Origin: an uncultured Akkermansia sp.
GTDB taxonomy: Bacteria > Verrucomicrobiota > Verrucomicrobiia > Verrucomicrobiales > Akkermansiaceae
Length of the DNA stretch: 64,000 nucleotides
NCBI GenBank assembly: GCA_947589345.1
Contig: CANQAC010000001.1
Span: 54,757-118,756 of the forward strand
Direction: 5' to 3'
The translations under genes were made by a program, and so were the position numbers. Below are positions 9,051-31,224 of this stretch, in pieces (positions within the stretch are counted from its first letter, which is position 1; each line of letters starts with the position of its first letter). The notes beneath the pieces were generated by a model. The model worked only from the letters and a program-made list of their open reading frames with translations, searched no databases and was not told the DNA's origin.

Positions 9051-10021
9051 GCGTGACTTACATCGATGCCATTCATCAGGCGATGGAAGAGTTGCTGGAG
9101 GAGGACCCGCTCGTCTTCATCTACGGGGAGGACATTGCCGGCAAGTTCGGCGGCGCCTTCAAGGCGACCAAGGGGCTCGCGGATCGTTTCCCGGACCGCG
9201 TGCGCAACGCCCCGATCAGCGAGGACGCTATCATGGGAATGGCTATCGGCGCTGCCATCGGCGGTCTGCACCCCATCGTGGAAATGCAGTTCGCGGATTT
9301 CGGCACGCTCGCCCTCAACCAGATGGGCAACAACGCCGGCGCCCACTTCTTCCGCACGGGTCTCCCCGTGAATGTCACCATGCGTATGCCCTGCGGCGGC
9401 ACACCCGGCGGCGGTCCGTTTCACAGTCAAAGCGTGGAAGCTCTCTTTGCGCATTACCCCGGCGTTCACGTCTTCACCCCCGCCACCGTGGCGGATGCCT
9501 ACTTCATGCTCAAACAGGCGGTGCAGATTCCCGATCCTGTTGTGTTCATGGAAAACAAGTTCCTCTACCGCTGGCTCAAGGCGGACACCTGGCTGGAGGA
9601 CGAGCCCTTGCCCGTCGGACGCGCCCGCATCGCCCGCGAGGGGGAGCACGCCACCGTGGTCGCTTTTTCCGCCATGGTGCCGGAAGCGCTCAAGGCTGCC
9701 CACGACCTTGCGGAGCAGAGCGGCTACGAACTCGAGGTGGTGGACCTGCGTTCCGTCAAACCTCTGGACACCGATACGATCCTCGCCTCGGTGGCGCGTA
9801 CGGCTCGTCTGCTGGTGGTGAGCGAGGATTTTCCGTGGGGCGGCGTGGCGTCGGAGGTGGTCTCCCGCGTGGTGGCGCAGGGGATGCACTTGCTGGATGC
9901 ACCGCCGCTTCGGCTCACGTCCAAGGAAAGCCCCATCCCCTACCATCCCGACCTCTGGCGGACGCATCGTCCGAGCAGCTCCACCATCGCGGAGGCCGCT
10001 CGCTACCTCATCTCTCTTTAA
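9047..10021 (+). CDS. 2-oxoacid dehydrogenase E1 beta subunit
   Basis: GEDI..FGG.FKAT, NAPISE, VEMQFADF, GGPFHSQS, VVDLRSVKPLD; ATGA overlap with E1 alpha. Confidence 0.93.
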   Translation: MSVTYIDAIHQAMEELLEEDPLVFIYGEDIAGKFGGAFKATKGLADRFPDRVRNAPISEDAIMGMAIGAAIGGLHPIVEMQFADFGTLALNQMGNNAGAHFFRTGLPVNVTMRMPCGGTPGGGPFHSQSVEALFAHYPGVHVFTPATVADAYFMLKQAVQIPDPVVFMENKFLYRWLKADTWLEDEPLPVGRARIAREGEHATVVAFSAMVPEALKAAHDLAEQSGYELEVVDLRSVKPLDTDTILASVARTARLLVVSEDFPWGGVASEVVSRVVAQGMHLLDAPPLRLTSKESPIPYHPDLWRTHRPSSSTIAEAARYLISL

Positions 10022-10045
10022 CTCACCCTCGCATCCCTCACTCCT

Positions 10046-11287
10046 ATGCCTCAAGTCCCCATCCTCATGCCCCAACTCGGCGAATCCATCACGGAGGCGA
10101 CCATTATGCATTTCCTGCTTCAACCCGGCGATACGGTGCAGGCGGATCAGGAGGTGCTGGAGGTGGAGACCAATAAGGCGGTGATGGGCGTGACGACCGC
10201 CTGCGGCGGCAAGCTGCTTTCCTTCTCGGTTGCCGAGGGTGAATGCGTTCCGGTCGGCGCCGTTTTGGGGATTATCGAGGCATCTCAAGAGGAGGTGGAT
10301 CGCTGCGGTGTGCAGACGCTGGAGGAGACCCACGCGCCTCTCCCCCATGCCACCACCCCCGCAGAAACGACCCCGGACGCCGGGGCTCATTTCCGCACGG
10401 AGGGCGAGTACCGCGAGGAAAGCGAGCCTTCTCGAATCCACCCCTCAGGCAAGGGGCTGCCGGTGCCCATCGGCGTGCGCGGCGCCCACTACCTCTCCCC
10501 GCGCATCCGCGCCCGCATGGACGAGCTCGGCATCACGGAGGCGGATATGGCCTACATCGTCGGCACCGGGGCAGGGGGGCGCATCACGATTGATGATTTC
10601 GAAAAGTTCTTGGAGTACGTGGACGGCTGGCCCTCCCGCCAGGCGAGTCCCATGCGCCGCAGTGTGGCGGACAGCATGCAGCGCACCTGGCGACGTCCGA
10701 TCGCGAGCGCCGGTCGCCCGGTGTACATGGGACCCATCATCATGCACCGCAAGAGCCACCCCCGCCGCCCCGGCTACACGCTCTACTTCGTGCGCGCCCT
10801 CGCCCTCGCCCTCGCCGAGGCTCCGGAATGCGCGGGCTACATGGTGGGCGGTCGTATCCTCACGCCGAAGCGCATCGACTTGGGCGTGGCCGTGCAGGTG
10901 ACGGACGGCGTGCTGGTGCCGGTGATGCGCAATGTGGATCGCTACACGCTGGATGAACAGATCGACGAGTTCAATAAAATTGTCCACCAGGCCCGCAGCC
11001 GCAGACTGGATGACGCTTACAAGGGTGGCGGCATTGCCACGGTGACGAATTTCGGAGGCTTCGGTCTCACCTTCGGCACGCCCATGCCCTTGCCCAGCGA
11101 GAGTCTCATTCTCGGTGTCGGCGCTGTGCAGAAAACTCCGGTCTGGAGCGATGAAGTGCAGTGCTTCATCCCCGTGGAGCAGGCGAACATCTCTGCCTCC
11201 TTCGATCACCGCGTGGTCGATGGCGGCGATATAGGCCGCCTCATGCAGCGCATTGCCTACTACCTCGAACACCCCGAACTCCTGTAA
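10046..11287 (+). CDS. 2-oxoacid dehydrogenase E2 (dihydrolipoamide acyltransferase)
   Basis: One lipoyl domain (EVETNKA), E3-binding GTGAGGRIT..D, catalytic SFDHRVVDG. No E3 (lpd) gene in this operon. Confidence 0.92.
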   Translation: MPQVPILMPQLGESITEATIMHFLLQPGDTVQADQEVLEVETNKAVMGVTTACGGKLLSFSVAEGECVPVGAVLGIIEASQEEVDRCGVQTLEETHAPLPHATTPAETTPDAGAHFRTEGEYREESEPSRIHPSGKGLPVPIGVRGAHYLSPRIRARMDELGITEADMAYIVGTGAGGRITIDDFEKFLEYVDGWPSRQASPMRRSVADSMQRTWRRPIASAGRPVYMGPIIMHRKSHPRRPGYTLYFVRALALALAEAPECAGYMVGGRILTPKRIDLGVAVQVTDGVLVPVMRNVDRYTLDEQIDEFNKIVHQARSRRLDDAYKGGGIATVTNFGGFGLTFGTPMPLPSESLILGVGAVQKTPVWSDEVQCFIPVEQANISASFDHRVVDGGDIGRLMQRIAYYLEHPELL

Positions 11288-11303
11288 TTTTTCCCCACCG
11301 TCC

Positions 11304-11345
11304 ATCGTAAATCGTAAATGTCTTATCGTAAATCGTAAATGAAAT
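11304..11345 (+). repeat. Heptamer tandem array: ATCGTAA x2, ATGTCTT, ATCGTAA x2, ATGAAAT
   Basis: Read directly; 7-nt register is kept across degenerate units. Confidence 0.95.
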
Positions 11346-11351
11346 TGTAGT

Positions 11352-11711
11352 ATGGACAAAGAAGAAATGGCGAAAAGAACAGCGAAGTTCGGGTTGCGTG
11401 TTGTGAAACTGTATCTGACGTTGGAGCAGGAAAAAAACGGGGCAGCGAATGTCATCGGCAAGCAGTTGCTGCGTTGCTCGACATCCGTTGGGGCGAATTA
11501 TCGAGCTGCGCTGCACGCAAAGAGTCGTGCGGACTTTTTGAACAAGATCAAAATCTGCGAAGAAGAAGCGGATGAAAGCGAGTACTGGCTTGAGTTGCTG
11601 GTTCAAGCAGGCTTAGTAAGCGCAGCCAAGGTGCGCAACTTGCGCGCAGAAGCTCATGAACTTTCCTGTATCATCTCAGCTACCGCCAAATCCACGCGCA
11701 CCGCGCGCTAA
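11352..11711 (+). CDS. Four helix bundle protein (TIGR02436 / 23S rRNA IVS / bAvd-like family)
   Basis: IGKQLLRCSTSVGANYRAA...S..DF.NKIKICEEEADESEYWLELL is the family signature. Confidence 0.92.
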   Translation: MDKEEMAKRTAKFGLRVVKLYLTLEQEKNGAANVIGKQLLRCSTSVGANYRAALHAKSRADFLNKIKICEEEADESEYWLELLVQAGLVSAAKVRNLRAEAHELSCIISATAKSTRTAR

Positions 11712-11727
11712 AATTTAAATCGTAAAT
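11712..11727 (+). repeat. Heptamer units immediately after the four-helix-bundle stop codon (AATTTAA ATCGTAA AT)
   Basis: ATCGTAA at 11719-11725. Confidence 0.8.
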
Positions 11728-11827
11728 AGGCGCCCAGCCGCTTTCCTCATAACACTCTGCCATGATTGATCCCGCCACCAATGCTTTTGCATTGCATTTC
11801 CCGCGCCTCCGGCGCGCTAGCATCCAA

Positions 11828-11862
11828 ATCGTAAATCGTAAATCGTAAATCGTAAATGAAAT
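11828..11862 (+). repeat. Heptamer tandem array ATCGTAA x4 + ATGAAAT directly upstream of lpxI
   Basis: Four perfect units at 11828-11855, then ATGAAAT overlapping the lpxI ATG. Confidence 0.95.
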
Positions 11863-13024
11863 GATTTCATTTCCAAACGCCGCTGGTATGACTCTCGGTC
11901 TATTGGCCGGTGCGGGTGAATACCCCCTCATGGTGGCTCAGGGTGCTCGCCGTGCCGGCGTTCGGGTCGTTTGCGCCGGTTTCCGCGGTGCGGTGGGACG
12001 CGATCTTCCTCCGCTTTGCGATGTGTTCCGTTCCTTCCGCGTGGGAGCGGTGGAGAAGCCGCGTGATTTCTTCCGCGAGCAGGGGGTCACCCATGTGATG
12101 ATGGCGGGACAGATCAAGCCCGCCTGTATCTACACGATGTGGCCGGATGCCACGGCTCGCCGCTTACTTGCTTCCATGGACCGCCGCAACGCGCATACGA
12201 TTTTCGGTGCCGTCTGTCGCTACGCCCAGCAGGAGTGCGGCTGGGAGGTTCTCCCTTCCACCACGTTCATGGAGGACTTCCTGCCCGCCGCCGGACACCT
12301 TGCCGGTCCGTCACCAACCCCTGAGCAGGTGGAGGAGGCGGCGCACGGCCTTGCCCTCGCCCGCCGCATTGCCCGTCTCGATATCGGACAGAGCCTCATC
12401 GTGCACGGCGACCGTGTCGTCTGCGTGGAGGGTTACAAGGGCACCAACGAGTGCATCTGGGAGGGCGCGGGTTCCTCGGATTCCCCGACCACGCTCTGCA
12501 AGGTCTCCAAGCCCGGACACGACATGCGCTTCGACGTTCCCTGCATTGGTCTGGACACCATCCGCCACTGCATCCGCTGCCATGTGCGCCACATCGCCCT
12601 GCAGGCTCATAGCACTATCATTTTCCAACGCGAGCAGGTTCTGCGACTCTGCAATGAACACGGCATCCTGCTGCAGGCGGTCGATCTCCCCTCCGAGCCG
12701 GAGCAGCTTCTTCCTTCTCTCTTCTCCGACCGCGACCACGCGCTCTTTCTCGCCCGCGAGCTCGATTCCCTCGGCATCGGCGGCAGCGCCGTCGTGTGTG
12801 AGGGCGTTGTCATCGCTGTGGAAGATCCCGACGGACTCGCCAAATGCCTCCGCCGAGCCGGTCGCTACATGAAGCGCATCCGCTTCATCCGCCTTGTCAA
12901 CTTCCTCATCCGTCTCCTCCTCCATCGCTCCTCCACTCCTCCCTCTCCCCCCACTCTCGCGACTCTCCGTCCCCTCTCCGATTCCGACCAAAAACTCGCG
13001 CGTAAGTACGGAATCTCATTTTGA
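11861..13024 (+). CDS. lpxI: UDP-2,3-diacylglucosamine pyrophosphatase LpxI with C-terminal extension
   Basis: LGLLAGAGEYP, MAGQIKP, LDIGQS, VEGYKGT, KVSKPGHDMRFDVPCIG motifs. Confidence 0.88.
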   Translation: MISFPNAAGMTLGLLAGAGEYPLMVAQGARRAGVRVVCAGFRGAVGRDLPPLCDVFRSFRVGAVEKPRDFFREQGVTHVMMAGQIKPACIYTMWPDATARRLLASMDRRNAHTIFGAVCRYAQQECGWEVLPSTTFMEDFLPAAGHLAGPSPTPEQVEEAAHGLALARRIARLDIGQSLIVHGDRVVCVEGYKGTNECIWEGAGSSDSPTTLCKVSKPGHDMRFDVPCIGLDTIRHCIRCHVRHIALQAHSTIIFQREQVLRLCNEHGILLQAVDLPSEPEQLLPSLFSDRDHALFLARELDSLGIGGSAVVCEGVVIAVEDPDGLAKCLRRAGRYMKRIRFIRLVNFLIRLLLHRSSTPPSPPTLATLRPLSDSDQKLARKYGISF

Positions 13025-30744: not shown

Positions 30745-31224
30745 TCACCGGTTCAATCTGACTTCGGTTGTGCTGCAAATCAGATGGCCCATCATAGCCT
30801 CCTGCACCGCAAAGAGGGCGGCGCGCTGTGCCGGGGAAGCATCCAGGTATCCGTGCAAGTGGGTGAGACCGTGTACGATGTAGCGAATTAGCTCTTCCGG
30901 TTCGGGAATGGAGTGCTGCGTCGCGTAGCGGGCAGCTGTTTCATAGCTCACGATGATTTCGCCGTAGGGGAAAGTGATGACGTCTGTGGCAATGGGGTCA
31001 TTCAGAAAGTCGCCATGGACACGTGCGATAGTTTGATCATCTACGAGTGATATCTCAATTTCCCGCAGAGTAGAGAGCACATGTTGAGGGCCACGTGGCG
31101 TGGCCAGCAGTACGGGCAGCAGCTGCTCAAGGGCTTGCTCACAGGAAGTAGCCCAAGGTCGGGAGGGCCAAGCCGGCTTGCCATGGAGGTAAATGCCAAT
31201 GTGCGGGAGCATAGCGCGGGTCAA
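30745..31224 (-). CDS. ybeY: rRNA maturation endoribonuclease YbeY
   Basis: TDVITF, GEIIVS, HGLTHLHGYLD metal-binding motif; start may be ATG 31212. Confidence 0.88.
   Translation of the reverse strand: MTRAMLPHIGIYLHGKPAWPSRPWATSCEQALEQLLPVLLATPRGPQHVLSTLREIEISLVDDQTIARVHGDFLNDPIATDVITFPYGEIIVSYETAARYATQHSIPEPEELIRYIVHGLTHLHGYLDASPAQRAALFAVQEAMMGHLICSTTEVRLNR

Follow-up and report, generated by a model that had tools for sequence, protein, structure and literature searches.

To our knowledge, a function has been assigned since 1993 only to the diversity-generating retroelement (DGR) branch of the PF05635/TIGR02436 family, a large family whose four-helix-bundle (4HB) proteins occur in many phyla. 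The closest known system to the locus described here is the intervening sequence (IVS) of 23S rRNA that bears an open reading frame (ORF), found with the S23p gene in Coxiella burnetii and also in Leptospira, Brucella and Xanthomonas (PMC4990558). In Coxiella the IVS has a 28-bp stem, a variable number of GACAGAT heptamers precedes the S23p start codon, and RNase III cuts the element (PMC4990558). Dispersed heptanucleotide repeats have been described as well, namely the GGGAATC repeats of Xanthomonas and Nostoc, with potential stem-loops or cruciforms noted for Xanthomonas (PMC4692102), and the heptanucleotide elements of Geobacter metallireducens (PMC2700814). In the literature searched no paper was found linking 4HB genes outside rRNA with heptamer arms. 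Here we analyse a 4HB gene set among ATCGTAA heptamer arrays between the E2 gene of a 2-oxoacid dehydrogenase and lpxI, in a stretch of 64,000 nt (the window) of contig CANQAC010000001.1 from a rabbit-gut Akkermansia metagenome-assembled genome (MAG; GCA_947589345.1) of 2.25 Mb in 102 contigs that is 99.55% complete. The unit in the window was inserted there, has been resident at two sites or more, bears a conserved protein gene and rearranges at its repeats. Coordinates are those of the window, and all features of the locus lie on the + strand.

Filled and empty operon junctions

The insert comprises positions 11288-11860, 573 nt between the E2 stop codon and the ATG of lpxI. In all 19 congeneric species examined the E2-lpxI spacer is 4-24 nt long and both the gene and the heptamers are absent; because the spacer is short and clean in 19/19 congeners, the block 11288-11860 is an insertion, as the initial annotation had proposed for the gene and its arrays. 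The E2 stop codon (11285-11287) forms the left edge of the insertion, and the E2 genes of relatives terminate at the same point.

At three other junctions, ahcY|folC, prfB-like|trmD and purS-like|purQ, a 4HB cassette is present in some Akkermansia species, while the same junctions are clean in the source genome with spacers of 5-17 nt. The number of 4HB copies ranged from 0 to 16 per genome among 31 Akkermansia genomes. The cassettes insert into the very short gaps that separate the stop codon of one co-transcribed gene from the start codon of the next; co-orientation with the host genes is stated for the four junction types that were read directly. Neighbour orientations taken from the longest ORFs were contradicted by inspection (shadow ORFs, GC-rich DNA) and were dropped.

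At three filled ahcY|folC junctions (loci L031, L030 and L039) roughly the first nine codons of the folC-like gene were apparently replaced by codons of the right array, and the gene had acquired a new TTG or ATG start when compared with the empty site of the source genome (contig C7, positions 30800-31040).

A chimeric join induced by repeats during assembly or binning of the MAG is an explanation to which we give practically no weight. The genome is divided into 102 contigs, many of which break at arrays, but a 2361-nt contig of an independent rabbit-gut run reaches from E2 across the insert into lpxI, and the same arrangement was present in nine ENA contigs and in the assemblies of two other species (L042 and L043).

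Seven-nucleotide arrays flank the 4HB genes

All 20 other Akkermansia 4HB loci examined were flanked by imperfect 7-nt arrays, mostly inverted. Among the 18 loci with both flanks, a lag of 7 exceeded lags of 5, 6, 8, 9 and 10 upstream in every case and downstream in 17, and pairing between the two flanks lay more than 3 standard deviations above that of shuffled flanks in 11. The ground plan in Akkermansia is an upstream array that is the reverse complement of the downstream array, and GC hairpins often flank the ORF on both sides, as in L023. The array unit varies by junction and included TTGACGA, TTACGAT, ATTTACA, TACGAAG, ACAAAGG and GGTACAT. The first unit often holds the stop codon of the upstream gene, and the last unit runs into the next start codon. 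An intact cassette is a long palindrome consisting of left array, GC hairpin, inner segment, 4HB gene, inner segment, GC hairpin and right array, the transcript of which would fold into a stem of more than 40 bp enclosing the 4HB gene.

Homologue loci from many phyla (n=78) were analysed using a threshold of at least 0.75 identity over 28 nt. A lag-7 array was found in at least one flank of 52 loci and in both flanks of 21, while arrays at lags of 5, 6, 8 or 9 over the same threshold were found in 0/78. Inverted repeats scoring 14 or more between the flanks occurred in 39/78 loci, and the repeats printed were mostly heptamer arrays. The initial annotation had raised the question whether other members of the family have heptamer flanks of their own, and the counts of 20/20 in Akkermansia and 52/78 across phyla answer it largely in the affirmative.

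The 4HB gene and its product

The 119-aa ORF scored 62.8 bits against PF05635 (cut-off 33.8; residues 5-109 of 119) and 78.1 bits against TIGR02436 (cut-off 24), and is the only TIGR02436 gene in the source genome. The nearest solved structure is PDB 2RLD (E=1.6e-20), an entry with five chains, and by similarity to it the protein is possibly a pentamer. IVP genes have been noted within cas loci, and the family motif is GxxRxxxSxxxNxxE (PMC3936711). The corresponding region of the window protein is GKQLLRCSTSVGANYRAA, in which R, S and N are in register, the final E is replaced by A and the G is displaced; the ANYRAA form is common to all Akkermansia 4HB copies that were translated. Values of dN/dS among the window copy and its relatives L043, L044 and L045 were 0.08-0.14, and a ratio of about 0.1 indicates that the protein is maintained by purifying selection.

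Layout of the copy in the window

The host genes are E2 (10046-11287; Pfam Biotin_lipoyl, E3_binding and 2-oxoacid_dh) and lpxI (11861-13024; LpxI_N and LpxI_C). The E2 stop is followed by a 16-nt spacer, TTTTTCCCCACCGTCC (11288-11303), which is probably what is left of the original E2-lpxI spacer, of an upstream module since deleted, or of both. This reading is based on the empty-site spacers of relatives, which look like TTTCAAGTCTTTTTCC; the region corresponding to 11288-11303 is longer in L042 and L043, and the L043 version is a whole module including the GC hairpin. The left array block, (ATCGTAA)2 ATGTCTT (ATCGTAA)2 ATGAAAT (11304-11345), is a direct arm in the same orientation as the right array, and is separated by TGTAGT from the 4HB gene (11352-11711), which is co-oriented with the operon.

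A GC hairpin, CGCGC-ACC-GCGCG (11695-11707), overlaps the last codons of the ORF and opens the gene's own right-end module; the nhmmer module profile matched this 3' end of the gene at 11683-11729 (E=5e-6). Directly after the stop codon follow the linker AATTT and a truncated right arm of 1.5 units (11712-11727), the arm itself being AAATCGTAAAT (11717-11727). Since the short arm is followed by AGGCGCC, it ends in ...AAATAGG, the usual module end, and many modules in the genome end in ATCGTAA-ATAGG and then a hairpin. The best match to the module profile (E=7e-14) was a gene-less right-half module at 11741-11860, made up of the conserved inner part CCATGATTGATCCCGCCACCAATGC..., a GC hairpin (11802-11816), the linker CTAGCATCC and the right array (AAATCGT)4 (11826-11853), after which AAATGAA stands directly 5' of the lpxI ATG (11861).

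The 21-mer ATCGTAAATCGTAAATGAAAT occurs exactly at 11325-11345 and at 11842-11862, where it overlaps the lpxI start codon, and these are the 2 copies in the whole genome. The patterns GCGCGC-TAAAAT-TT-AAATCGTAAAT and GCGCGC-TAGCAT-CC-AAATCGTAAAT lie at 11703-11727 and 11812-11836, respectively. The heptamer dimer ATCGTAAATCGTAA, allowing at most one mismatch, was found five times in the window, in all cases at this locus, and shuffled sequences gave an average of 0.02. The coordinates that had been assigned to the arrays, the 21-mer, the GCGCGC patterns and the ORF all match the sequence, and the heptamer array is indeed found nowhere else in the window. An Rfam scan of 10800-12400 gave no family match.

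A one-armed derivative and its close relatives

No inverted repeat was detected at the window copy. The direct repeats were D2, of 37 nt with 86% identity and 517 nt apart, and D3, which comprises hairpin, linker and array and is 36 nt long with 75% identity between 11692-11727 and 11801-11836. The predicted RNA fold was no better than that of shuffled sequences (z=+0.47). The window copy is a truncated derivative that lost its left half or had it replaced, leaving right-half modules in tandem.

Four close relatives were compared. L042 (97% amino acid identity) has the same site and layout as the window, apart from its longer left spacer, and its junction looks recombined within the GC hairpins. 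L043 (95%) occupies the same E2-lpxI junction with a complete right-type module 5' of the gene and three more in tandem after it. The DNA identity between L043 and the window is 93% for the 4HB gene, 81% for E2 and 90% for lpxI, and these jumps in identity along 9851-13024 suggest that two rabbit-gut Akkermansia species have recombined with a breakpoint close to the cassette. L044 (90%) lies at a different site, upstream of another gene (menD-like by its N-terminus), with the same inner layout as in the window, GTAAATCGTAAATGAA..ATG-ORF-TAA..AAATCGTAAA. It is enclosed by (TTACGAT)4 and a hairpin on the left and by a hairpin and (AAATCGT)3 on the right; each arm measures 43 nt, the two are 93% complementary with 668 nt between them, and the fold has z=-3.8. 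The 4HB genes of L044 and the window are 87% identical in DNA while the flanking orthologues are 73-75% identical, and this higher similarity of the 4HB gene suggests that it was transferred once the species had diverged. In L045 (78%) the arms are inverted in the ordinary way.

The direct-repeat appearance of the window copy is secondary, because these close relatives explain it. The initial annotation had read the locus as a repeat-bounded cassette; the plan of the family is inverted arms, and the window copy is one-armed with an adjacent gene-less module. The idea of a mobile cassette, on the other hand, gains from L044, a 90%-identical copy of the same inner layout at another site.

The same comparisons bear on the view that the gene is a small, vertically inherited regulator, with the heptamers serving as operators (iterons) or as phase-variable repeats that control lpxI. 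The arrays do stand directly 5' of two start codons, and their unit numbers vary between strains. Gene and arrays are missing, however, in the 19 congeners in which E2 and lpxI are 4-24 nt apart, the cassette unit of L044 lies at another locus in another species, the + strand has no promoter-like site and the arrays are spread over unrelated loci, so that we regard this view as improbable.

Gene-less modules and strain-level differences

Exact ATCGTAA arrays of 2-9 units were found at seven further places on six other contigs of the source genome, and ATCGTAA-dimer matches numbered 36 versus 0 for a control pattern. That such arrays are scattered over the genome without the gene was an outcome that the initial annotation had set against its own proposal. 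The module consists of a GC hairpin, a linker such as TAAATTTCC or TAGCATCC and (AAATCGT)n, often with ATAGG and a further hairpin. Counting was done with the nhmmer profile, as a looser regular expression gave mostly noise, and yielded 19 copies at E<1e-3 on 15 contigs; unit variants among the modules were ATCGTGA, ATCGTAC, ATCGTCC and ATCCCAA. Modules homologous to 11741-11860 are present on contigs C89, C29, C92 and C58. In those on C29 and C89 a conserved inner segment is enclosed by two arms, the left one inverted, while many other copies are one-armed.

The gene-less inner segment (window 11760-11846; C89, about 400-500; C29, about 2000-2265) starts CCATGATT..CCCGCCACCAATGC. A short ORF (MIDPATNAF...) that continues into the array is one possible reading, and the decayed 3' end of a gene is another; as a decayed 3' end of the 4HB gene it shows about 58% identity over 24 nt by eye.

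Module and unit numbers differ among L042, L043 and the metagenome contigs L126, L129 and L130. In L129 and L130, which encode the identical protein, one additional module (about 115 nt) separates the right array from lpxI, and L126 has a longer version of the short arm. These flank differences among contigs with identical protein indicate that strains are still gaining and losing modules by a repeat-mediated route at arrays and hairpins.

Several further array-bearing sites were recorded in the source genome. Contig C11 (103-2160) carries on its minus strand genes for an AbiEii toxin (PF08843, E=5e-36) and a DUF6088 protein, bracketed by direct copies of (ATCGTAA)n-ATAGGCGC..CTAGGCGCC, the right end being the same module of GC hairpin, linker and array; the (CCAAATC)15 at the start of C11 probably joins the (ATCCCAA)11 at the end of C92. 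On C30 (24556-25498) the array ATCGTAA ATCGTAA ATCGTAC ATCGTAA lies in frame within a 327-codon frame, where it reads QIVNRKSYIVNS; this frame has no Pfam match, is followed by a second module after its end and may be a true read-through or a spurious ORF. At the end of contig C6 (1-90) a 12-nt tandem repeat, (CACGGAATAAAA)n, adjoins a left-type heptamer arm and GC hairpin. In the rabbit-gut runs X1-X4, X15 and X19 the summed contig depth of the module at window 11793-11886 was tens to a few hundred times that of its flanks, which indicates that the module is very abundant in these communities beyond the source genome.

The modules might be independent small intergenic repeats, similar to miniature inverted-repeat transposable elements (MITE) or repetitive extragenic palindromic (REP) elements, that spread in some other way, the 4HB gene being a passenger or preferring to land there; the arrays would then say nothing on the role of the protein. 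With regard to the criteria for MITE and REP elements, the modules have many dispersed copies with conserved ends; C29, C89 and L044 are two-armed while many others are one-armed, and neither Y1_Tnp/RAYT nor a fixed duplication was found. A passenger gene would be in line with the approximately 20 gene-less modules of the source genome, with the direct arrays that also bracket the AbiEii/DUF6088 toxin-antitoxin pair on C11, with genome G043, which has 13 array hits and no 4HB gene, with the gain and loss of modules between strains in which the 4HB protein stays identical, and with the correlation between 4HB and Y1_Tnp counts (rho 0.49, 31 genomes, uncorrected for phylogeny). A local repeat family, however, cannot explain a link between gene and arrays that recurs in unrelated phyla with different heptamers (52/78) and in rRNA IVSs. 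Moreover, genomes lacking the 4HB gene carry fewer ATCGTAA arrays (Mann-Whitney p=0.005, uncorrected for phylogeny, with G043 as exception), and the source genome, G014, G016 and G045 have cassettes with neither a Y1 transposase nor a reverse transcriptase (RT). We therefore consider the passenger explanation possible but rather unlikely.

Enzymes, promoters and retroelements

The protein bAvd, which belongs to the same fold family, binds RT and RNA. On this ground the 4HB protein might be an Avd-like RT cofactor of a DGR or other retroelement, and the arrays, given that RTs are able to make short tandem repeats, might be products or templates of reverse transcription. RVT_1 had 0 matches in the whole, 99.55%-complete source genome, in agreement with the initial annotation, which had seen no RT, DGR or rRNA context; RT is likewise absent from 12 of the 23 Akkermansia genomes that bear a 4HB gene, and no pair of template and variable repeats is present near the gene. 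The retroelement explanation is largely refuted for this genome and very unlikely overall. Y1_Tnp/RAYT, the transposase family surveyed, also had 0 matches in the source genome.

A hexamer resembling a -10 box had been pointed out within the GCGCGC patterns. It lies in the variable linker, a scan for promoters and terminators found nothing on the + strand at the hairpin-linker motifs, and the promoter reading was dropped.

Proposed explanation and its significance

The explanation that we favour, and hold to be fairly probable, is that the 4HB gene is cargo, carried by a small family of cassettes that are protein-gene-bearing relatives of 23S rRNA IVSs and would be expressed by read-through, processed by RNase III when two-armed and spread via their arrays. 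The window copy would have arrived between E2 and lpxI in an ancestor shared by a small rabbit-gut Akkermansia clade and then lost its left arm, so as to consist now of leftover right-type arrays, the gene with an arm of 1.5 units and the gene-less right-half module. Read-through of the host operon would express the 4HB gene, and by analogy with the Coxiella IVS the stem of two-armed copies may be cut by RNase III, freeing the host cistrons. The arrays may also act as frame-independent stop and restart signals that end upstream translation and give the next gene its start, as repeats of a 7-nt unit with TAA bring a stop codon into all three frames over 21 nt and the array end AAATG offers a start. 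Host functions would bring about spread and rearrangement, by recombination or template switching from one dispersed array or hairpin to another. Since the window copy has no stem, the RNA-processing part does not apply to it, and only the protein and array-level dynamics can matter there.

A number of observations weigh against this explanation. Direct movement of the cassette was not observed and no enzyme for it was identified; comparisons of filled with empty sites found no fixed-length target duplication. In a search for a within-species empty or excised allele, 9/9 metagenome contigs with the identical protein were filled, as were both contigs with an identical E2 at E2-lpxI, and no contig skipping the insert was found in four metagenomes. 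The excision considered in the initial annotation accordingly finds no counterpart, as no excised or circular form was seen among these data. The window copy is without a stem, yet its gene is conserved; arrays without the gene are frequent, with about 20 modules in the source genome and 13 array hits in G043; and the sole RNA run contains the repeated module and does not cover the 4HB gene. That the putatively pentameric protein might be bound to the repeats is conjecture. In run X15 one 260-nt contig joins the end of E2 (92% identical) to gene-less modules, skipping 524 nt; it may be a gene-less allele, a weak lead, as the joint is of a type flagged unreliable.

A different use of the same elements can be imagined, in which the arrays are the landing and exchange sites of a recombinase-free system, units of cargo, GC hairpin, linker and array are added, swapped and deleted by array-array recombination, and the 4HB protein, as a pentamer, binds the arrays and promotes or protects these events. 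We think this unlikely. If it were true, the AbiEii/DUF6088 pair on C11 would be an example of further cargo taken up between the same boundaries, and the 23S rRNA IVSs would be copies that landed in rRNA.

The evidence from this locus and its relatives spans five operon junctions in filled and empty state (E2|lpxI, ahcY|folC, prfB-like|trmD, purS-like|purQ and aminotransferase|membrane protein), a second-site copy, purifying selection, strain-level flux of modules and the absence of RT and Y1 transposase. The locus connects the 4HB family with the excess of heptanucleotide repeats in bacteria, themselves unexplained. As Akkermansia is a gut genus with cultivable members, RNase III processing, binding of the protein to the repeats and array recombination become testable. 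For annotators, small 4HB genes and their flanks are best treated as one inserted unit.

Comparison with known systems

The Correia elements of Neisseria and the enterobacterial repetitive intergenic consensus (ERIC) sequences are small palindromic inserts that are co-transcribed and fold in RNA, and Correia elements are reported to be cut by RNase III. Such inserts contain no gene, and their terminal inverted repeats and target duplications are defined, whereas elements of the type in the window have heptamer-array ends, no fixed target duplication and, in some copies, a conserved gene.

The 4HB protein resembles bAvd in its fold family and as a small basic four-helix bundle, and, as far as can be predicted from the sequence, may share its pentameric state and nucleic-acid binding. 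The contexts differ: unlike a DGR, the source genome is without RT, the locus is without template and variable repeats, and the surroundings are a housekeeping operon.

Like the modules, dispersed heptanucleotide elements are arrays that lie between genes, each with 2 to more than 20 imperfect units, and their copies number tens to hundreds. The reports on them contain no tie to the 4HB family, and the unit sequences are unrelated (PMC4692102, PMC2700814); in modules of the window type the array is, in addition, coupled to a GC hairpin and linker as a fixed module.

The 23S rRNA IVS differs from the window cassette in four respects. The host of the latter is the protein-coding junction E2|lpxI and not helix 25 or 45 of 23S rRNA; it has direct arrays only and no stem, although a stem is present in L044 and in 11 of 18 other Akkermansia loci; its protein is under purifying selection, while in Coxiella the ORF is reportedly in decay and probably not translated; and its genome holds many accompanying gene-less modules. 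Both, on the other hand, encode a PF05635 four-helix-bundle protein of about 120 aa inside a host transcript, both are without a transposase, their mobility having long been suspected and never demonstrated, and both have tandem heptamers of variable unit number beside the start of the ORF.

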